Virus record (IMG/VR): IMGVR_UViG_2537561991_000022 | From: a virus | Lineage: Duplodnaviria; Heunggongvirae; Uroviricota; Caudoviricetes | Length of the DNA: 21,194 nucleotides | Strand: one strand, 5' to 3' | Part shown: piece after piece, positions 2,703 to 21,194 of the stretch | Position numbering within the stretch: position 1 is the first letter of the stretch | Layout: every line of letters begins with the position of its first letter | Translations under genes and position numbers: made by a program | Notes under the pieces: model-generated | The model's input: only the letters and a program-made list of their open reading frames with translations | Databases searched by the model: none | What the model was told of the DNA's origin: nothing

Positions 2703-2734
2703 ACACGCAAGAAAAAGCCGCCATCAGGCGGCTT
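2703..2734 (-). terminator. Intrinsic terminator-like hairpin just upstream of xis (tL3-like)
   Basis: Stem aagccgcc/ggcggctt (2715-2734) with 4-nt loop; on the minus-strand RNA it is followed by UUUCUUGCG. The IS target duplication abuts its upstream arm. Confidence 0.4.
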
Positions 2735-2738
2735 GGTG
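2731..2738. repeat. Left copy of the 8-bp target-site duplication GCTTGGTG flanking the IS66-family element
   Basis: GCTTGGTG sits immediately outside the GTAAGCG... terminus at 2739; an identical 8-mer is at 5193-5200. Confidence 0.7.
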
Positions 2739-2775
2739 GTAAGCGTGCAGCAAGAACCGTATTGACGGGGATGTG

Positions 2776-4314
2776 TTATTCAGTCGGCAGTGCTACGCGC
2801 CAGGGGAGCAGTTCGCCGACCCGGTTTATCGGCCAGTCGGCTATGACGTCAAGGACATAGCGGAGGTAGCTTTCTGGCTCCACTCCGTTCAGTTTGCACG
2901 TCCCGATCAGGCTGTACAGCAGCGCTCCCCGCTCTCCTCCATGATCCGAACCGAAGAACAGGTAGTTTTTGCGGCCCAGACTGACCATCCGCAACGCATT
3001 TTCAGCGATGTTATTGTCCGCCTCAGCCCAGCCATCATCTGCATAGTACGTCAGCGCCGGCCACTGGTTCAGGGCGTATGCGAACGCTTTCGCCAGTTCT
3101 GAGTGTCGCGACAGGGTTTTCATCTTTTCACGCAGCCAGCTTTCCAGGGATTTCAGCAGCGGTTTCGTTTTCAACTGACGTTCGGCAAGGCGCTGCTCCG
3201 CCGTCATTCCCCTTATCTCTGCCTCGATGGCGTACAGTTCGCCGATCCGTTTCAGCGCTTCCTCCGTCAGGGCTGACGGGGTGCGAACGTGCACATCGTG
3301 GATTTTACGGCGGGCGTGAGCCCAACAGGCGGCTTCCGTTATCCGGCCATCCCGGTACAGCTCGTTGAACCCGGCGTATGCATCCGCCTGCAGTACACCA
3401 CTGAACCCCGCAAGATGGGTCTGCGGATGGATGCCTTTTCTGTCCGGGCTGTAAGCGAACAACACCGCCGGCGCCAGCGTTGACCCGGCGTTACGGTCGT
3501 CACGAACGTAGGTCCATAACCGCCCGGTCTTCGTTTTCTTATTGCCTGGCAACAGCACCGGGACAGGCGTGTCATCAGCATGGAGCTTACCGTCAGTCAG
3601 CACATAGTCCTGAAGCGCTTCTTCCAGCGGTGACAGTAGCCGGCAGCATGCATCCACCCAGCCCGACAGCAGTGAACGACTCAGCTCCACGCCCTGGCGG
3701 CCGTACATTTCAGACTGGCGGTACAGCGGGGTGTGCTCTGCATACTTTGAGATCAGCACGCGGGCCAGCAGCCCCGGTCCTGCGATACCCCGCTCGATGG
3801 GCCGTGAAGGCGCGGGGGCCTGCACGATGGCATCGCACTGAGTACAGGCATGCTTTTCACGTACAGTCCGGATAACCCGGAAGGCGCTGCGCATCAACTC
3901 CAGCTGTTCGGCGGCATCCTCACCCAGATAGCTCAGTGAGCCTCCACATTCCGGGCAGCATGATGCTGCCGGCAGCAGCCGTTTTTCATCGCGGGGGAGT
4001 GATTCGGGGAACGGTTTGCGGGTGCGGGTTTGACGCAGCGGGCGCTGCACGGCCGGGTCGTCAACCCGACCGGTAAGGGTATCACTTTCTTTCTGAAGTG
4101 CCTTCAGGTCAGCTTCCATCTGTGCGATACGACGGGAGACTTTTTCGGAGCGGCTGCCGAAGTTCATCCGGCGCAGCTTATCCAGCTGTGCCTGCAGATG
4201 GTCTATTTCGCGTTCACGCTCGTTCAGCTTTTCCAGCAGGGCACGGTTCAGCGCCTCCTGTTCGGCAAGGAGACGTTTCAGTGCATTGATATCGTCAGGA
4301 AGTGAGCTGCTCAT
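2776..4314 (-). CDS. tnpC: IS66-family transposase TnpC
   Basis: 512-aa ORF with an N-terminal coiled-coil/leucine-zipper-like region ([38 protein letters not shown]) and a CxxC...CxxC cluster, typical of IS66 transposases. Confidence 0.9.
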
Positions 4315-4362
4315 ACCGGGTATATTACCAGGCTCATTCAGCGTCGACCAGGATAAAGAGGC

Positions 4363-4710
4363 TTACAACATAGTCAGGGACGTAAGCAGTCTTTTAGGCT
4401 GCCGCCAGTCGATACCTTCCAGCAGCATCGCCAGCTGTGCCGGTGTGAGGAACACTTTGCCATCCCGGGCTGACGGCCAGGCGAAGCGGCCGCGCTCCAG
4501 CCGTTTGGTCAGCAGACACAGTCCATCGCCGGTAGACCAGAGGAGCTTTACCTGACTGCCATTACGCCCACGGAAGATAAAAACGTGACCTGACATCGGA
4601 TCGTCTTTCAGCGTCGTCTGCACCTTTGCCGCCAGGCCGTTGAAGCCGTTTCTCATATCGGTGATGCCAGCGACCAGCCAGATCTTTGTCCCTGATGGTA
4701 ATGGGATCAA
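4363..4710 (-). CDS. tnpB: IS66-family accessory protein TnpB (Orf2)
   Basis: 115-aa ORF MIPLPSGTKIWLVAGITDMRNGFNGLAAKV... matches the conserved IS66 Orf2 family from memory; sits between tnpA and tnpC. Confidence 0.85.
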   Translation of the reverse strand: MIPLPSGTKIWLVAGITDMRNGFNGLAAKVQTTLKDDPMSGHVFIFRGRNGSQVKLLWSTGDGLCLLTKRLERGRFAWPSARDGKVFLTPAQLAMLLEGIDWRQPKRLLTSLTML

Positions 4711-5111
4711 CGTTTGAGCTCCCGTATCAGCAGGTTCAGGATATTTTCGCTGATGGCACCATTCAGACGGAGTGATCCGTGCCGGAACGTCACTTCACAG
4801 CTGATATTGAGTGATTCAGGTGTCGCAGCAGCTACAGGTTGTGACCGGGGGGAGGTTGTAGGGACAACATCTTCGGCATCAAGTGTTATCGGGAGCAGCT
4901 CAGGCACGTTGTTTTCTGTTGTTGAAGGAGGACGTAGTTTTCCTTCGCGCCAGTACTGGCGCCACTTGAACAGCAAATTATCGTTGATCCCATGCTCACG
5001 AGCGAGTTGCGCTACGGAGATCTCTGGTCGATGCGAGAGTTCAACCATTTTGATTTTGAACTCAACGGGATAATTAGGGCTTTTTTTACGCACTGCGGTT
5101 AATGATTTCAT
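4707..5111 (-). CDS. tnpA: IS66-family accessory protein TnpA (Orf1, HTH)
   Basis: 134-aa ORF; overlaps the tnpB start by 4 nt (ATGA coupling) as in IS66 elements; first gene inside the right inverted repeat. Confidence 0.85.
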   Translation of the reverse strand: MKSLTAVRKKSPNYPVEFKIKMVELSHRPEISVAQLAREHGINDNLLFKWRQYWREGKLRPPSTTENNVPELLPITLDAEDVVPTTSPRSQPVAAATPESLNISCEVTFRHGSLRLNGAISENILNLLIRELKR

Positions 5112-5192
5112 GGATAGCGTCCACCATATTTGGTGTCCACTATTCTCTCAGGAATTTCAGGATCTGCCAGACGGTGCTGAGACGACGCTTAC

Positions 5193-9346: not shown

Positions 9347-9479
9347 TTTTTGGGACTCCTGGCTGATTAAGTATGTCGATAAGGCGTTTCCATCCGTCAC
9401 GTAATTTACGGGTGATTCGTTCAAGTAAAGATTCGGAAGGGCAGCCAGCAACAGGCCACCCTGCAATGGCATATTGCAT
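9315..9479 (-). CDS. cIII: Lambda CIII (FtsH/HflB inhibitor, stabilises CII)
   Basis: Hand-translated 54-aa [57 protein letters not shown] (below the 60-aa cut-off of the ORF track); matches lambda CIII. Confidence 0.85.
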   Translation of the reverse strand: MQYAIAGWPVAGCPSESLLERITRKLRDGWKRLIDILNQPGVPKNGSNNYGYPD

Positions 9480-9551
9480 GGTGTGCTCCTTATTTATACA
9501 TAACGAAAAACGCCTCGAGTGAAGCGTAATTGGTATGCGGTAACGCCGCGC

Positions 9552-10108: not shown

Positions 10109-10990
10109 TTATGACCACTTTTTGTTTGGGTTTCGTTGGTGAGCGTGGTTTACAGGATTATTTGATATACCCCATAACTCTGACTCGCTTATCTCTACAC
10201 GAGAGAAAGACCTGCTTTCTTTCAGTTCTTTTATAAACCTAGAACCTAAGATGACATCTATTGTACCAGAAAGTTCTTGTAAAAGATCTATGTTTTTTCT
10301 GAGGAAGAAAATATCTTCTTTATATTTAATTTTTACATAGAATTTATTCTGTATTTTTAATATATCAAAGCATGGCAGATATCTATATCCCTCATATTTT
10401 CGCCACTGCTTAACAATTATAACATCTTTTTCATTTACTGCATTAATCAGCCCAAGACCAAGTACAGGTATGAATATTCTATTGTCTGCCGAAAGCGTAC
10501 AATTATCACCACCAGGCAAATATGTATAAATCATGTCGGAATTTTTATACGCATCAACGAATGCACGTAAGAAGCGTACATATTTTTGCCATCCGTTTAT
10601 ACCGAATTTACCATATAAGTATTCTTTATTTGTTAGAAGAAAACTATTTGTATCAGGATCCTTATCTACAGACCTGTCGATAAGATCTCCAACTACGTTT
10701 ACAAAGTCAAAGACAGAGTTTAATAAGAACAATTGTCTTTCAGTAGGGCGAATTTCAATTATGTAGCCAGGATGAAGACGATATTGCATCTGCTTACGAA
10801 GTATACCGAACGCTTGGGTCCGAGCATCTGAAAGCAACTTCTTGTCGCCATCGCCGTGAGCATTGTTTCTAATAAAACTGATATAATTTGCTAATTTTTC
10901 AGCCTCTTTTTTGTGTTTTTTTCGCTCTGATGCTGAGTCTATTGGTTTTGGTATGGACTTGTAATCAATCTTCTTCATTACGTACCTCAT
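10109..10990 (-). CDS. Hypothetical 293-aa protein of unknown function in an AT-rich cassette between ea10 and N (lambda ral/sieB position); candidate anti-phage defence, exclusion or anti-restriction factor
   Basis: Uninterrupted ORF, strongly AT-rich versus flanks. Annotated ATG (10988-10990) overlaps the N stop codon (ATGA); an alternative ATG at 10978 (MKKIDYKS...) has an AGGT SD. No motif I can recognise (no P-loop, no Rx4-6H, no obvious PD-(D/E)xK). Confidence 0.65.
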   Translation of the reverse strand: MRYVMKKIDYKSIPKPIDSASERKKHKKEAEKLANYISFIRNNAHGDGDKKLLSDARTQAFGILRKQMQYRLHPGYIIEIRPTERQLFLLNSVFDFVNVVGDLIDRSVDKDPDTNSFLLTNKEYLYGKFGINGWQKYVRFLRAFVDAYKNSDMIYTYLPGGDNCTLSADNRIFIPVLGLGLINAVNEKDVIIVKQWRKYEGYRYLPCFDILKIQNKFYVKIKYKEDIFFLRKNIDLLQELSGTIDVILGSRFIKELKESRSFSRVEISESELWGISNNPVNHAHQRNPNKKWS

Positions 10991-13459: not shown

Positions 13460-14292
13460 ATGACAAATACAGCAAAAATACTCAACTTCGGCAGAGGTAA
13501 CTTTGCCGGACAGGAGCGTAATGTGGCAGATCTCGATGATGGTTACGCCAGACTATCAAATATGCTGCTTGAGGCTTATTCAGGCGCAGATCTGACCAAG
13601 CGACAGTTTAAAGTGCTGCTTGCCATTCTGCGTAAAACCTATGGGTGGAATAAACCAATGGACAGAATCACCGATTCTCAACTTAGCGAGATTACAAAGT
13701 TACCTGTCAAACGGTGCAATGAAGCCAAGTTAGAACTCGTCAGAATGAATATTATCAAGCAGCAAGGCGGCATGTTTGGACCAAATAAAAACATCTCAGA
13801 ATGGTGTATCCCTCAAAACAGGGGAACACAAAAGACACTAATACAAAAGAAAATAGAAAAGATTATTCGTCAGAGAATTCTGGCGAATCCTCTGACCAGC
13901 CAGAAAACGACCTTTCTGTGGTGAAACCTGATGCTGCAATTCAGAGCGGCAGCAAATGGGGGACAGCAGAAGACCTGACCGCCGCAGAGTGGATGTTTGA
14001 CATGGTGAAGACTATCGCGCCATCAGCCAGAAAACCGAATTTTGCAGGGTGGGCTAACGATATCCGCCTGATGCGTGAACGTGACGGACGTAACCACCGC
14101 GATATGTGTGTGCTGTTCCGCTGGGCCTGCCAGGACAACTTCTGGTCCGGTAATGTGCTGAGCCCGGCCAAACTCCGCGACAAGTGGACCCAGCTCGAAA
14201 TCAACCGTAACAAGCAACAGGCAGTCGTGACAGCCAGCAAACCAAAACTCGACCTGACAAACACAGACTGGATTTACGGGGTGGATTTATGA
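13460..14292 (+). pseudogene. O: Replication initiator O, disrupted by a frameshift inside the origin iteron region
   Basis: N-terminal 119 aa (MTNTAKILNFGRGNFAGQERNVADLDDGYARL...ISEWCIPQN) in one frame and the C-terminal ~162 aa (YPSKQGNTKDTNTKENRKDYSSENSGESSDQPENDLSVVKPDAAIQSG...WIYGVDL) in another; frames meet at 13807-13819. Confidence 0.85.
13808..13825. repeat. Single remaining ori-lambda iteron (ATCCCTCAAAACAGGGGA) followed by the AT-rich origin segment
   Basis: One copy of the iteron with internal dyad TCCC...GGGA; lambda as I remember it has four tandem copies here. Confidence 0.6.
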
Positions 14293-16661: not shown

Positions 16662-17265
16662 ACCAGCGCGAAGACGATGTAAAAACGATGAATGTCGGGA
16701 ATGGTTTCACCCTGCATTCGCTAATCAGTGGTGGTGCTCTCCAGAGTGTGGAACCAAGATAGCACTCGAACGACGAAGTAAAGAACGCGAAAAAGCGGAA
16801 AAAGCAGCAGAGAAGAAACGACGACGAGAGGAGCAGAAACAGAAAGATAAACTTAAGATTCGAAAACTCGCCTTAAAGCCCCGCAGTTACTGGATTAAAC
16901 AAGCCCAACAAGCCGTAAACGCCTTCATCAGAGAAAGAGACCGCGACTTACCATGTATCTCGTGCGGAACGCTCACGTCTGCTCAGTGGGATGCCGGACA
17001 TTACCGGACAACTGCTGCGGCACCTCAACTCCGATTTGATGAACGCAATATTCACAAGCAATACGTGGTGTGCAACCAGCACAAAAGCGGAAATCTCGCT
17101 CCGTATCGCGTCGAACTGATTAGCCGCATCAGGCAGGAAGCAGTAGACGAAATCGAATCAAACCATAACCGCCATCGCTGGACTGTCGAAGAGTGCAAGG
17201 CGATCAAGGCAGAGTACCAACAGAAACTCAAAGACCTGCGAAACAGCAGAAGTGAGGCTGCATGA
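16651..17265 (+). CDS. ninG: NinG (Rap, structure-specific recombination endonuclease)
   Basis: 204-aa translation [69 protein letters not shown]... matches lambda NinG. Confidence 0.9.
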
Positions 17266-17927
17266 ATATCTACGAAAGAATTGATGGCAGCAAATACCGA
17301 AATATTTGGGTAGCTGGCGACCTGCACGGATGCTACACGAACCTGATGAACAAACTGGATACGATTGGATTCGACACCAAAAAAGACCTGCTCATCTCGG
17401 TTGGCGATTTGGTTGATCGCGGTACAGAGAACGTCGAATGTCTGGAATTAATCACATTCCCCTGGTTCAGAGCTGTGCGTGGAAACCATGAGCAAATGAT
17501 GATTGATGGCTTATCAGAGCGTGGAAACGTTAATCACTGGCTGCTTAATGGCGGTGGCTGGTTCTTTAATCTCGATTACGACAAAGAGACTCTGGCTAAA
17601 GTTCTTGCCCATAAAGCAGAAGAACTTCCGTTAATCATCGAACTGGTGAGCAAAGATAAAAAATATGTCATTTGCCACGCCGATTATCCTTGTGATAAAT
17701 ACGAGTTTGGAAAGCCAGTTGATCATCAGCAGGTAATCTGGAACCGCGAACGAATCAGCAACTCACAAGACGGGATCGTGAAAGAAATCAAAGGCGCGGA
17801 CACGTTCATCTTTGGTCATACGCCAGCAGTGAAACCACTCAAATTTGCCAACCAGATGTATATCGATACTGGCGCAGTGTTCTGCGGAAACCTCACATTG
17901 ATTCAGGTACAGGGAGAAGGCGCATGA
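17262..17927 (+). CDS. ninI: NinI serine/threonine protein phosphatase (lambda-PPase, Orf221)
   Basis: 221-aa translation with metallophosphatase motifs GDLHG, GDLVDRG, GNHE; matches lambda Orf221. Start overlaps the ninG stop, so no ninH lies between them. Confidence 0.9.
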
Positions 17928-18013
17928 GACTCGAAAGCGTAGCTAAATTTCATTCGCCAAAAAGCCCGATGATGAGCGACTCACTACTGGCCACAGTTTA
18001 TTGGTTTTCGTAA
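17924..18013 (+). pseudogene. Q: Truncated remnant of lambda Q antiterminator (~24 matching codons, then foreign sequence)
   Basis: Frame [20 protein letters not shown]... matches the lambda Q N-terminus, then runs into a stop at 18011-18013; downstream DNA is AT-rich and non-lambda. Confidence 0.7.
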
Positions 18014-18043
18014 CTGAGTCATTTTATTATTTTATTGCAACTT

Positions 18044-19102
18044 TTAATCTTTTATAGTGCGAAATAAATGGAGCTGGCATTCATTTCGCACTTTATGTTT
18101 TTGTTTGGACTTATTGTTATTTTGTATTGAATTCAATTCAGTTAAAAAAAGAAAGGTGATTGCTCCATTTATAAATGAATAGTCATCCCCTGTCTTGAAT
18201 TCTGATGTTACTTTATTAAATGCTAGTGTGAAGGCTACAGGTGCATACCCAATTGTTGCGCCAACTTGATATTCATCAACAGTTTTGTTTAGCGATACTG
18301 TTGTTTGTTTCGTCTGTATTGTTTTTCCTTCGAGAGTATAGTTGCGATTGACATCTCGTCTTTCCATACCTGCAAAAATCTTGTATTTGAATCCGCTTGT
18401 ATCGGACATATGCATTAAACCACGGGGAGCCAGCAGACCAAAGCCATTATCCGAATTGAAGGTTTTATCATTACCAATGGCAATGGTTGCGCCATATGCT
18501 ACATATTGAAATAAGTTTCCAGTAACAGCAGAAACTTCAGGGTATAATCCAACATTAGCACCTAAAATATCCATACTTGGTGTCATGGATAGCATCCCTT
18601 TTACAGTATAACCGTAGCGATTCTCTATTTGATCATCCCATGCATGATATTTTTCTGCCCCAATAATCTCATGAGCTTTATTTTGTACTTTCTGACCGCC
18701 TGCGTCGGGGCCAACAACACCTATGTCAGTACCTAATCGATAGCGAATCCAGTCATTCGCAAGGGAGCTCCATTCAATACCAGTGTGAGTGTATGCACTA
18801 AAAGCTCTGTCCCCAGTTACAGCTGTGTTGTGTCTTTTATTACTGCCTGATGGAGAGTAAATATCTTGCGCAATATGGAGAGATAATTGGCTCGAGTCTG
18901 AGATATCGTGGCTATATCCCAGAAATAAGCCTTGTGAGTAATCATCTCTGTTTTCATGTTTATTGCCATAAATATCATTAAGTATTGGTTGAAACTTCCC
19001 TGCATCATCATTTGCTAATGATAATGCAAGGCTGTTCGCGATAGCTGAACACGTGGTAAATGACAGAGCAATAAAGACGCCAGCGATGACACTTTTTTTC
19101 AT
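18044..19102 (-). CDS. lpxR: LpxR-like outer-membrane lipid A 3'-O-deacylase (beta-barrel) with a 33-aa C-terminal extension
   Basis: Signal peptide MKKSVIAGVFIALSFTTCSAIA; mature-numbered N9, D10, S34 and H122 coincide with the catalytic residues I remember for Salmonella LpxR; the homologous part ends ...GAITFLF at residue 319; good SD (AAGGAAG). Confidence 0.7.
   Translation of the reverse strand: MKKSVIAGVFIALSFTTCSAIANSLALSLANDDAGKFQPILNDIYGNKHENRDDYSQGLFLGYSHDISDSSQLSLHIAQDIYSPSGSNKRHNTAVTGDRAFSAYTHTGIEWSSLANDWIRYRLGTDIGVVGPDAGGQKVQNKAHEIIGAEKYHAWDDQIENRYGYTVKGMLSMTPSMDILGANVGLYPEVSAVTGNLFQYVAYGATIAIGNDKTFNSDNGFGLLAPRGLMHMSDTSGFKYKIFAGMERRDVNRNYTLEGKTIQTKQTTVSLNKTVDEYQVGATIGYAPVAFTLAFNKVTSEFKTGDDYSFINGAITFLFLTELNSIQNNNKSKQKHKVRNECQLHLFRTIKD
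18057..18108 (+). terminator. Strong hairpin with downstream T-rich tract (plus-strand intrinsic terminator candidate)
   Basis: Perfect 9-bp stem gtgcgaaat/atttcgcac (18057-18065 / 18083-18091) with inner aatg/catt pairing, then tttatgtttttgtttgg. Lies inside the 3' extension of the LpxR-like ORF. Confidence 0.5.
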
Positions 19103-19577
19103 ATGTTATTGTCTTCCTTTTTTTTGAATGGTGCGCGTATTTTACATACATGAGTTTGTAATACAAGGTGCGTAATCAATATGATGTTTTATAATTGCGT
19201 GAGACAATTGATTTATTTGTTTTTTATTGCGGTTTTTATTATCTTTTAATGTAACGGTGTTTTTATTAAGTGTGTTTGCGTGGTGTTTTATGTTTTTTAT
19301 AATTTTTATTTTATTAAATTTAAATGCATTAGTAATGGCTATTCTATATAGCAATATAAGAACTGTTACAAAAAAAGGGGGGGCAATTACAGGTAGTTAT
19401 GGATGATGAGTGAAACAGATATTGGAGAACCGGGGAATGAATGATGTCTGAGTCTTATATATCAGAACTCCTTCGCTGTCGCTGGGGGCTCCTGTGCTTA
19501 TGTCGTTTCCCCGATTCGGTTTTGAACGATTACCGAATGTTGAAGAATTATGCCAAAATATAGAAAGGATTTACTGC

Positions 19578-20267
19578 ATGAATACCCAATATTTACAGTA
19601 TGTTCGTGAGCAACTTATGGCAGCTACTGCTGACTTGAACGGAGCAACGAAAGGCCAGCTCGAAGCCTGGCAGGAGCATGCACAATTTGATACTGGTACA
19701 TACAAACGAAAGAAGCCGCGCATTCTGGATGTGGTAACTGGCAAGATGATTACGCTGGATAATACGCCGACTTCCGGTAAGCAGTCGTACGCAAAAGGTT
19801 CATCCATTGCTTTGGTCAGCCCGGTTGAATTCTCAACCTCTTCATGGCGCCGCGCGGTTTTGTCTCTCGATGAACATCAGAAAGCATGGTTGCTTTGGTG
19901 TTACAGCGAAAGCGTTCGATGGGGGCATCAGGTCACCATAACGCAATGGGCATGGAGCGAGTTTAAAGATTTGTTAAGTAACAGAAAAATTGCAGGTAAG
20001 ACACTGGATCGCCTGAAGACGTTAATCTGGCTGGCTGCACAGGATGTGAAGAGCGAACTTGCAGGGCGTGAGGCCTATGAATACCAGACACTGGCATCAT
20101 TGGTGGGAGTGACAACAAAAAACTGGTCCGAGACATTTACTGAACGCTGGGTTGCAATGAAGCACATTTTTCTACAGCTTGATAGTGATGCTTTATTGCT
20201 TGTGACGAGAACACGTTCAAAACAAAAGGCAGCATTTTTACAGCAAAATATTGCAAAACTGGATTAA
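19578..20267 (+). CDS. Putative Q-family late-gene antiterminator (long phage-82/QuuQ-type), tentative; the ORF also opens upstream at 19494
   Basis: 229-aa frame from MNTQYLQYVREQL... with AAAGGA SD; sits after the nin region and is followed by a promoter-like element and short terminator as expected for Q-pR'-tR'. Family assignment is from gene context and weak recall only. Confidence 0.4.
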   Translation: MNTQYLQYVREQLMAATADLNGATKGQLEAWQEHAQFDTGTYKRKKPRILDVVTGKMITLDNTPTSGKQSYAKGSSIALVSPVEFSTSSWRRAVLSLDEHQKAWLLWCYSESVRWGHQVTITQWAWSEFKDLLSNRKIAGKTLDRLKTLIWLAAQDVKSELAGREAYEYQTLASLVGVTTKNWSETFTERWVAMKHIFLQLDSDALLLVTRTRSKQKAAFLQQNIAKLD

Positions 20268-20280
20268 AAGCCATATACTT
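20251..20280 (+). promoter_or_regulatory. Candidate sigma-70 promoter at the 3' end of the Q-like gene (pR'-like)
   Basis: -35 TTGCAA (20251-20256), 18-bp spacer, -10 TATACT (20275-20280); predicted start about 35 nt upstream of the terminator. Confidence 0.3.
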
Positions 20281-20312
20281 CATGCAAATTTGGTATGTTG
20301 TAAAAAATGTAT

Positions 20313-20340
20313 AAACCCGCTGCCGAGTGGGTTTTTTTTA
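20313..20340 (+). terminator. Intrinsic terminator (tR'-like) downstream of the Q-like gene
   Basis: Stem aaaccc/gggttt (20313-20318 / 20329-20334), 10-nt loop, followed by a T-run to 20339. Confidence 0.5.
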
Positions 20341-20436
20341 TGCCCTGAGTTGTACTTGTACGGTAAACATGCTGGCTGCTATGTAATAGAGTTTTTTTAG
20401 CCTGTAACCTCTTGACGGCATTGAATTGCTTTTGTT

Positions 20437-20955
20437 ATGAGTTGTAAGCCAATGTTATCATCTTGTATTGGGGTGGTTATGAAGGATGGTGCGCTGCTCA
20501 GGAGTTCTTCACTTTTTATTGCCTACATGGGATGCCTTGGATGGGGGAGTGCTTATTTCTATGGATGGGGTACTTCTTTTTACTACGGCTTCCCATGGTG
20601 GATTGTAGGTGCAGGTGTTGATGATGTTGCCAGAAGTTTATTTTTTGCAGTTATCGTCATTGCTATATTTCTTATCGGTTGGGGTATTGGTGTTGTATTC
20701 TTTTTCGCAGTGAAAAGAAAACATTCTATGCAAGAGCTAAATGTATTTCGCCTTTATTTTGCTGTGGAATTATTGTTTGTGCCGGCAATTATTGAGTTTT
20801 CTATATTGAGACAGAAGATTCAGGTACCTCTTTTGCTACTGTCAGCAGCGATTGCGCTGGCGGTTACAATTTCGATAAGATCTTATGGGCGATTTTTATC
20901 GGTATCATGCTTCTATGATAAGCCATTTATAAAAAACATTTTTTTGAGATTGTGA
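20437..20955 (+). CDS. Hypothetical polytopic membrane protein (Gly/aromatic-rich TM segments); likely start at 20479
   Basis: ORF with about four hydrophobic segments (e.g. WWIVGAGV, LFFAVIVIAIFLIGWGIGVVFFFAV, LLLLSAAIALAVTISI); AT-rich; stop TGA overlaps the next gene's ATG (TGATG). Confidence 0.5.
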   Translation: MSCKPMLSSCIGVVMKDGALLRSSSLFIAYMGCLGWGSAYFYGWGTSFYYGFPWWIVGAGVDDVARSLFFAVIVIAIFLIGWGIGVVFFFAVKRKHSMQELNVFRLYFAVELLFVPAIIEFSILRQKIQVPLLLLSAAIALAVTISIRSYGRFLSVSCFYDKPFIKNIFLRL

Positions 20956-21194
20956 TGATTGCTTTTGTGGCATATTTTTGGCTTTTTTCATTTCTGACAG
21001 GATATTACAAACCACAGTTTAAGAAAGAATATGAAATGATTAATTATAATGATGGTTGGTATTATGTTCTTGCTCGTTATGATAATTGTCTGGTTTTGTC
21101 TACTTCTTTCAATGCAGGTAGTAAAAGGTTTGTCATTTATCAATCAGCACAAGATAAGAATCTTCAGGTTGATATTGTAAGGACCAGAATTTAA
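20952..21194 (+). CDS. Hypothetical small membrane-anchored protein (one N-terminal TM plus ~55-aa soluble domain)
   Basis: 80-aa ORF MMIAFVAYFWLFSFLTGYY..., coupled to the upstream gene; stop codon is the last three bases of the window. Confidence 0.45.
   Translation: MMIAFVAYFWLFSFLTGYYKPQFKKEYEMINYNDGWYYVLARYDNCLVLSTSFNAGSKRFVIYQSAQDKNLQVDIVRTRI

Follow-up and report, generated by a model that had tools for sequence, protein, structure and literature searches.

Which protein drives late transcription in a lambdoid prophage whose own Q gene breaks off after 24 codons? The question is raised by IMG/VR virus record IMGVR_UViG_2537561991_000022 (Caudoviricetes), a DNA of 21,194 nucleotides that was analysed over its full length and is called the window below. 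The window is a 434-type lambdoid prophage at att-lambda, adjoining the host gene ybhC: ybhC occupies bases 1-1284 and is followed by int and xis, and phage homology begins at 1331, at the att core. Its identity to Escherichia phage 434 (OL657226.1) is 99.5-99.7% from 5193 to the window end, and the nucleotide identity over 17000-21194 is 99.5%, with the same gene content in the deposited annotation. In the late-control region a remnant of a lambda-family Q gene, here named Q', is followed by an lpxR gene on the opposite strand and by a gene for a Q82-family antiterminator. We consider it very probable that the lambda-type Q of this 434-type prophage was replaced by lpxR together with a Q82-type switch that drives late transcription.

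The locus reads from left to right as a lambda-type nin region that continues to Q codon 24 (up to ~17994), the lpxR cargo segment (~17996-19425), a segment with a rusA remnant, ylcG, the Q82-type gene and positions +1 to +27 of the leader of the late promoter pR' (~19425-20312), and the shared terminator tR' with the downstream genes (from 20313). The arrangement of a truncated Q, lpxR and a Q82-type Q is real but ordinary, as annotations of it exist for phage 434 and for hundreds of E. coli genomes. The nin-Q region of phage 434 (CPT_434_63 to CPT_434_68; Feiss et al. 2022, PMC9119081) likewise contains the Q' fragment, lpxR, ylcG, the Q82-like gene and the terminator, and it encodes an identical Q protein. 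In OL657226.1, CPT_434_64 is labelled "lambda Q N-terminal fragment", CPT_434_65 LpxR, CPT_434_66 YlcG-like and CPT_434_67 "Q82-like". The addition of the present analysis is the unreplaced natural allele, which fixes both breakpoints.

The Q82-family gene and its late promoter

A first-pass annotation of the window had proposed that a different candidate antiterminator lies at 19578-20267 and that late-gene expression would depend on it, if it is a functional Q at all. The product of this plus-strand gene matches PF06323 with an E value of 1.1e-91 and 306.8 bits (curated cut-off, 25 bits), and the match is full-length, with residues 4-219 aligned to profile positions 1-216 of 220. Yin et al. 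(PMC9388147) equate PF06323 with the Q82 family and count it among three Q families that are unrelated to one another. Our search returned 2,681 homologues of the protein, and among the homologues listed all belong to PF06323. Phage 434 has a single Q, with 100% amino-acid identity to this protein; that phage was propagated by liquid infection, and its virions were purified for sequencing (PMC9119081). Because the protein is identical to the sole Q of the lytically grown phage 434, we read the Q82-type cassette as the working late switch of that phage. Over 19378-20929 the window does not differ from 434, which means an intact Q gene with intact cis elements. Thus the dependence of late expression on the substituted gene, as first proposed, is upheld, while the doubt about a functional Q is largely removed by the full-length match, the identity to the Q of 434 and the 82-like geometry of the cis elements described below. 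A sequence search of the PDB found no relative of the Q82-family protein and no solved structure of the family. An AlphaFold2 model, built from a 40-sequence alignment of 72-100% identity, was unusable, with a mean predicted local distance difference test score (pLDDT) of 42.9 and a predicted template modelling score (pTM) of 0.25.

The late promoter pR' of the 82 type was located on the plus strand at 20251-20279, with the -35 element TTGCAA at 20251-20256, a 17-nt spacer and the -10 element TATACT at 20274-20279. A candidate Q-binding block, AAAACTGGATT, occupies 20255-20265 (-31 to -21), and both this block and the -35 element lie within the last Q codons. It has been reported that the Q-binding element (QBE) lies between the -35 and -10 elements and that the segment of 82 pR' from -31 to +30 holds the QBE as well as the pause element (PMC4914094). 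When we aligned the Q-distal regions of seven Q82-family phages, whose Q proteins range from 100% to 48% identity, all seven kept TTGCAAAAsTrGATT, the -10 element, the CATGCAAAT start region and TGnTATnTT at fixed spacing. The AAAACTGGATT block is conserved in 7/7 Q82-family loci, down to 48% protein identity, and overlaps invariant C-terminal codons; from this comparison we regard it as a candidate QBE. Promoter-like hits between 17800 and 21194 were no commoner than in shuffled sequence (9 vs 10.4), and the pR' call therefore rests on cross-phage conservation.

The initial transcribed region spans 20286-20312 on the plus strand. We placed the putative +1 at the first A of AAAT (A20286), which puts GCC at +15-17 and T at +25 in the relatives. 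For 82 pR', Bird et al. (PMC5001585) describe an extended -10-like element, then GCC as the discriminator (+15-17) and, with U at +25, a pause at +25/+26. The leader in the window has the extended -10-like pause element TGgTATGTT at 20291-20299 (+6 to +14) and T at +25, but GTA at +15-17, and by analogy a pause is predicted at +25/+26 (20310-20311). The leader is followed by the intrinsic terminator tR' at 20313-20342 on the plus strand, a G+C-containing hairpin followed directly by T8, with a 9-bp stem (4 G-C pairs), a tetraloop and U8 in the RNA (-15.8 kcal/mol, z -3.3). The terminator that had been predicted downstream of Q is therefore found as a hairpin with a U-tract. With the start placed as above, the spacing from TTGCAA-17-TATACT through TGgTATGTT to the hairpin and U8 equals that described for 82 pR'.

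We compared the window with phage 82 by family membership and the described geometry of its pR'. The two are alike in the Q family, the promoter overlapping the end of Q, the extended -10-like element at +6 to +14, the T at +25 and a close terminator, and the window has its conserved block at -31 to -21, where the QBE is reported to lie. Unlike in phage 82, the discriminator in the window is GTA rather than GCC, and past +27 the leader continues into a terminator that is common to lambda-Q-type prophages. Because the right joint of the substitution falls at +27, the leader RNA in the window is ~20 nt shorter than those of other Q82-type phages.

Further features were noticed around the promoter. 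The sequence TTGCAATATTTTGC at 20243-20256 on the minus strand fits the CII consensus TTGY-N6-TTGY and overlaps the -35 element of pR'; the 434 record lists the site as a paQ-type antisense promoter, and the E. coli Q82-type relatives PhiR47_2 and PPompW have retained the motif. We did not retain a CII-dependent paQ-like promoter at this position, for which the motif is weak evidence, as the window contains 12 such motifs against 6 expected by chance. The pR'-tR' leader (20274-20343) gave a sub-threshold Rfam match to the Salmonella RNA STnc240 (28.2 bits vs a gathering score of 55, E 0.25). The sole Rfam family that reaches its gathering score in the window is Lambda_thermo, the cIII thermoregulator, at 9434-9492 on the minus strand (88.5 bits). 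In Stx phages, the regulatory small RNA StxS is derived from the terminated pR' transcript (PMC7547250). The present locus resembles that system in that a constitutive late promoter directly followed by tR' would give a terminated RNA of ~55 nt, which by analogy with StxS could be a small RNA expressed in the lysogen; the likeness lies in the layout.

Based on these observations, we suggest the following course of events. The Q82-family protein would be expressed from pR transcripts that, antiterminated by N, cross lpxR in antisense, and it would bind a site within pR' (~-31 to -21). Q would then load onto an RNA polymerase held at ~+25 by sigma70 on TGgTATGTT, and the Q-loaded polymerase would read through the hairpin at 20313-20342 and through later terminators. 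Without Q, pR' would give only the ~55-nt RNA.

The surrounding prophage differs from phage 434 in several respects besides its chromosomal integration. A 67-nt deletion relative to 434 at ~13806-13807, within 13460-14292, removes three of the four iterons of ori and frameshifts O, which is split into open reading frames (ORFs) at 13460-13924 and 13801-14292; the prophage is probably replication-defective. Between xis and the early-left genes (window 2722-5192), the 434 sequence has given way to an IS66-family element at 2776-5111, with ORFs of 512 aa (2776-4314), 115 aa (4363-4710) and 134 aa (4707-5111), all on the minus strand. In addition, five single-base homopolymer indels, at 18104, 18114, 18125, 18152 and 20930, are private to the window when it is compared with 434, FDAARGOS_1059 and 7_26_9A. 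Both lpxR and the downstream membrane-protein gene are frameshifted: the indel at 18152 lengthens LpxR from 319 to 352 aa, and that at 20930 splits a 247-aa membrane-protein gene. The private homopolymer pattern suggests sequencing error, and real variation is also possible.

Several points weigh against the proposed replacement of Q by a switch that drives late transcription. First, the start site, the pause and antitermination are deduced from sequence and comparison. Second, the switch may never drive productive growth in this host, given the loss of ori iterons, the frameshifted O and the IS66-family insertion. Third, the block at -31 to -21 also encodes the invariant C-terminal AKLD of Q, so that its conservation as DNA is partly confounded; the block persists in phiES15, whose reading frame ends differently. 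Fourth, since mutation of the GCC discriminator of 82 shortens the pause (PMC5001585), pausing on a leader with GTA in its place may be weaker or shifted. Finally, the donor context of lpxR was not found among the genomes scanned: a scan of species-representative genomes gave one 72%-identical Citrobacter gene without flanking homology, so assembly in one step or in several steps are both possible.

The state of the prophage also raises the idea that the Q82-type cassette is an inert relic of a cryptic element in which the switch is no longer used. The deletion that takes three of the four ori iterons and splits O, the IS66-family element in place of part of the left arm, and the frameshifts in lpxR and in the first gene after tR' would all agree with such decay. 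However, the Q ORF, promoter, pause element and terminator are without any difference from the functional 434 across 19378-20929, late transcription needs no replication, the frameshifts are private homopolymer indels that may be sequencing errors, and the rest of the prophage lies beyond the window. It seems unlikely, therefore, that the cassette is a relic, and we prefer to regard it as a retained late switch.

The Q remnant and the left breakpoint

Q' is an ORF of 29 codons on the plus strand at 17924-18013, with its ATG at 17924 and its stop codon at 18011-18013, and it consists of 24 Q codons and 5 unrelated codons before the stop. Over the first 71 nt it agrees with the start of lambda-family Q, and there the homology stops. 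When Q' was compared with lambda Q (J02459, from 43886), the two were identical for 61 nt and the megablast match ended at window 17994, which corresponds to lambda 43956. We then compared it with the intact lambda-family Q of E. coli Z1322HEC0009 (locus L011), and identity extended to 17994 with a single mismatch at 17992, where lambda agrees with the window. In the L011 gene, as in the window, the sequence runs ...CTCACTACTGGC..., and residues 21-24 are LLAT in both. Because this intact Q reads alike, the degenerate-looking stretch past nucleotide 61 is allelic variation and not decay, and because residues 21-24 are shared with the intact allele, the number of surviving Q codons is 24, with the break at 17995-18002. 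Position 17995 is the first mismatch to both lambda-family alleles, and similarity is gone after ~18002. The G+C fraction (GC) across the junction drops from 0.475 (17800-17999) to 0.285 (18000-18199). The first estimates, that about 24 codons of lambda Q remain and that AT-rich, non-lambda sequence begins at ~17990-18000, agree with these alignments.

It has been known from the structure of Q-lambda that a four-helix body with a helix-turn-helix (HTH) is formed by residues 61-113 and 153-207 and a zinc-ribbon arm by residues 114-152 (PMC9388147). Q' lies outside the Q-lambda family (PF03589), as it holds residues 1-24 only, without the body or the arm. In agreement with this, the Q' ORF has no Pfam or NCBIfam match, and the NCBI pipeline PGAP calls the fragment a C-terminally incomplete antitermination pseudogene. 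Since the body and the zinc-ribbon arm are missing, we regard Q' as a dead remnant that cannot act as Q, and the native lambda-type activator is gone, as had been proposed. The locus still resembles the Q/pR'/tR' region of lambda (PF03589) in its position after ninI, in its regulatory role and in the first 24 codons; unlike lambda, it lacks 183 of the 207 codons, including the HTH body and the zinc ribbon, and it has no lambda-type pR', QBE or pause element.

It might be supposed that the Q' ORF was kept for a function of its own, either as a small peptide coupled to ninI or by a translation that protects the transcript on its way into the antisense lpxR region. Both the ribosome-binding site of Q and the ATGA overlap with ninI have been preserved, and the ORF is unbroken in 434 and in loci L003 and L012, and identical in hundreds of genomes. 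This conservation gives no signal of selection, however, as identity among those genomes exceeds 99% over the entire module. Within the N-terminal segment of Q-lambda, residues 45-60 alone fold on loading, and residues 1-24, those kept in Q', fall in the part that stays disordered (PMC9388147). The absence of family matches and the treatment of Q' as a fragment by both the annotators of 434 and PGAP also speak against a function. Based on these observations, we consider a function of Q' very unlikely, and we keep to its interpretation as a dead remnant left by the substitution.

The gene preceding Q' is ninI (17262-17927, plus strand), which corresponds to the Ser/Thr phosphatase gene orf221 of lambda (Pfam Metallophos, E 3.4e-16; ~96-97% identity to lambda 43224-43889). 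It is the last intact lambda-type nin gene, and its stop codon overlaps the start of Q' in the ATGA. Lambda has ninH between ninG and ninI; the window (17262-17265) lacks this gene, like 434, and in other E. coli prophages ninH is found directly 5' of Q or Q' without ninI. Right after the stop codon of Q', an 8-nt unit, ATTTTATT, is tandemly duplicated at window 18013-18028. The duplicated copy at 18021-18028 distinguishes the window from phage 434 and is common to E. coli prophages, many of which match the junction segment at 100%.

The right breakpoint, the intact allele and the origin of the arrangement

The same intact allele fixes the right breakpoint. L011 has rusA, ninH, an intact lambda-type Q of 624 nt and a lambda-type pR', followed by the shared downstream genes, and it has just two matches to the window, 17913-17994 and 20314-21194 (98.4% identity in the second). 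As L011 shares sequence only from 20314 on, the right joint is placed at 20312/20313. On the 82-type leader this is position +27, so that the joint falls just past the predicted pause and just ahead of the terminator hairpin that both alleles have in common. A membrane-protein gene (WP_001302581.1), a DUF3927 gene and an esterase gene follow the lambda-type Q in L011 and the Q82-type gene in L012, L003 and 434. The membrane-protein gene, the first one 3' of tR', occupies 20437-21194 on the plus strand of the window, which ends at its stop codon. It is a single 744-nt coding sequence in 434, L003, L011 and L012; in the window, the absence of an A at 20930 divides it into 20437-20955 and 20952-21194.

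On the other side of the Q82-type segment, homology to phages with the order rusA-ylcG-Q starts at ~19423-19430, and at most ~20 nt of the 3' end of rusA is kept. The ylcG-family small ORF follows at 19441-19563 on the plus strand (NCBIfam NF033498, E 7.4e-13; also supported by an alignment with PhiR47_2). The last few rusA codons, at ~19423-19440, make up a second gene remnant, and the lpxR segment is therefore flanked by truncated genes, Q' on the left and rusA on the right.

To explain this anatomy, we propose that in an ancestor a non-homologous recombination cut the lambda-family Q after codon 24, and that the interval from this codon to +27 of the late leader was replaced by a composite of 2.3 kb, with tR' and the downstream genes kept. 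The first part of the composite would be the AT-rich lpxR cargo on the minus strand (~17996-19425). The second part would be the right end of an 82-type early region, with a few rusA bases, ylcG, the Q82-family gene, its cognate pR', the Q-binding element and the sigma70-dependent pause element.

We searched 5,426 complete E. coli genomes for a 177-nt segment across the Q'-lpxR junction, with at least 80% coverage, and found it in 620, many at 100% identity. The carriers include O157:H7 EDL933, O55:H7, O111:H8 and O103:H2. Any match to this lpxR segment was found in 622 of the 5,426 genomes, the two weakest being divergent plasmid copies. Because the junction count nearly equals the lpxR count, the distribution indicates one ancestral substitution event. 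The intact-Q allele with the same downstream sequence was found in 568 of the genomes, some with ninI upstream, and either ninI or ninH can be upstream of both the Q'-lpxR junction and the intact-Q allele. This variation would follow from homologous exchange at a later time within the 5' end of Q, which is conserved.

A misassembly across two prophages, which the first-pass annotation had itself raised and which would agree with the abrupt change of composition and homology at 17995-18002 and with the imperfect sequencing suggested by the five private homopolymer indels, can be practically dismissed, as the junction occurs in those 620 genomes and in two independently sequenced stocks of phage 434, and both of its flanks are collinear with phage 434 over 18 kb.

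A laboratory exchange offers a useful comparison for the proposed natural substitution. In 434B (OL657227.1), Q, the late promoter and the lysis genes were replaced by sequence of the E. coli K-12 prophage DLP12, and, as in the window, the whole late-control cassette was exchanged as a unit. The match of 434B to the window ends at 19558, within ylcG, and this crossover is noted in the 434 record. Unlike in the event described here, Q'-lpxR was kept in 434B and the Q82-type cassette was swapped for that of DLP12. The event in the window is older, its left joint is non-homologous and lies inside Q, and its right joint lies at +27 of the leader.

The lpxR cargo and the meaning of the substitution

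The presence of an LpxR-like gene on the opposite strand, which had been recognised from the first, is borne out by the family search. The lpxR gene (lipid A 3'-O-deacylase family; 18044-19102, minus strand) matches PF09982 with an E value of 1.5e-39 and 136.3 bits, over the full length of the family (residues 10-317 against profile positions 2-319 of 323). The reference lpxR stop codon corresponds to window 18142-18144, and an extra A in the run at 18147-18153 gives an ORF of 352 aa instead of the 319 aa found in 434, L003 and L012 and the 321 aa found in Citrobacter, whose lpxR homologue ends at approximately window 18142. The protein is thus 33 residues longer than in 434, and the native C-terminus of the LpxR outer-membrane barrel is not kept in the window. 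This altered end may be a sequencing error.

A strong stem-loop lies at 18056-18092, between the stop of Q' and the 3' end of lpxR, with a 15-bp stem; its folding energy is -19.1 kcal/mol (z -6.3) for the minus strand and -16.7 kcal/mol (z -3.5) for the plus strand. It is probably the terminator of lpxR, and its U-rich tail is on the plus strand. Besides ending the lpxR transcript, it could stop unmodified pR transcripts. Upstream of lpxR, the right part of the cargo segment is a very AT-rich spacer (19103-19425, GC 0.25-0.28). The GC of the whole segment (~17996-19425) is 0.25-0.46 vs ~0.47-0.50 in the flanks, and neither the collinear intact-Q allele L011 nor the rusA-ylcG-Q phages have the segment. 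With its odd composition, its hairpin and its absence from collinear relatives, the segment has the features of prophage cargo (a 'moron'), and the promoter of lpxR is putative. It resembles known prophage morons, such as bor and lom of lambda and lpxR of enterohaemorrhagic E. coli (EHEC) (Ogawa et al. 2018, cited in PMC6393859), in being an AT-rich, opposite-strand host-fitness gene with a hairpin between phage genes. Unlike those, lpxR here sits at a recombination joint and interrupts Q, instead of lying between intact genes. The same lpxR is found in prophages of O157:H7, O55:H7, O111 and O103, and all E. coli copies share the same junction except the two divergent plasmid copies. The EHEC lpxR is reported to encode a 3'-O-deacylase that depends on the virulence regulators Pch and Ler (review PMC6393859).

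The small RNAs PasD1 and PasD2 have been reported to lie no more than 10 kb from lpxR and a Q gene in >98% of cases, directly 5' of a sialate esterase gene (bioRxiv 10.64898/2026.05.13.724894). We placed PasD just past the right end of the window (~43343-43371 in the 434 record; 10113-10141 in locus L001). That preprint lists the linked Q as PF03589, and the intact Q beside lpxR here is PF06323.

As the arrangement was already known from phage 434 and is marked by PGAP in hundreds of genomes of EHEC and enteropathogenic E. coli (EPEC), where it is a common prophage module, it matters little beyond bookkeeping. Because the lambda-type cassette (568 genomes) and the Q'-lpxR-Q82-type cassette (620 genomes) sit on the same terminator and downstream genes, they would give a natural definition of a portable Q unit. 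In its broadest form, the minimal portable unit of Q specificity would consist of the Q gene, the QBE, the promoter and the pause element without the terminator, exchange would recur at the joint next to that terminator, and the ~55-nt RNA could act in trans in lysogens; we regard this full extension as quite improbable. The base-level breakpoints nevertheless indicate that the Q gene moves with its promoter, binding site and pause element, and not with the terminator. The EHEC lipid-A-modifying virulence gene lpxR sits exactly at this recombination joint, and the natural pair of alleles could provide ready-made constructs for testing Q specificity.

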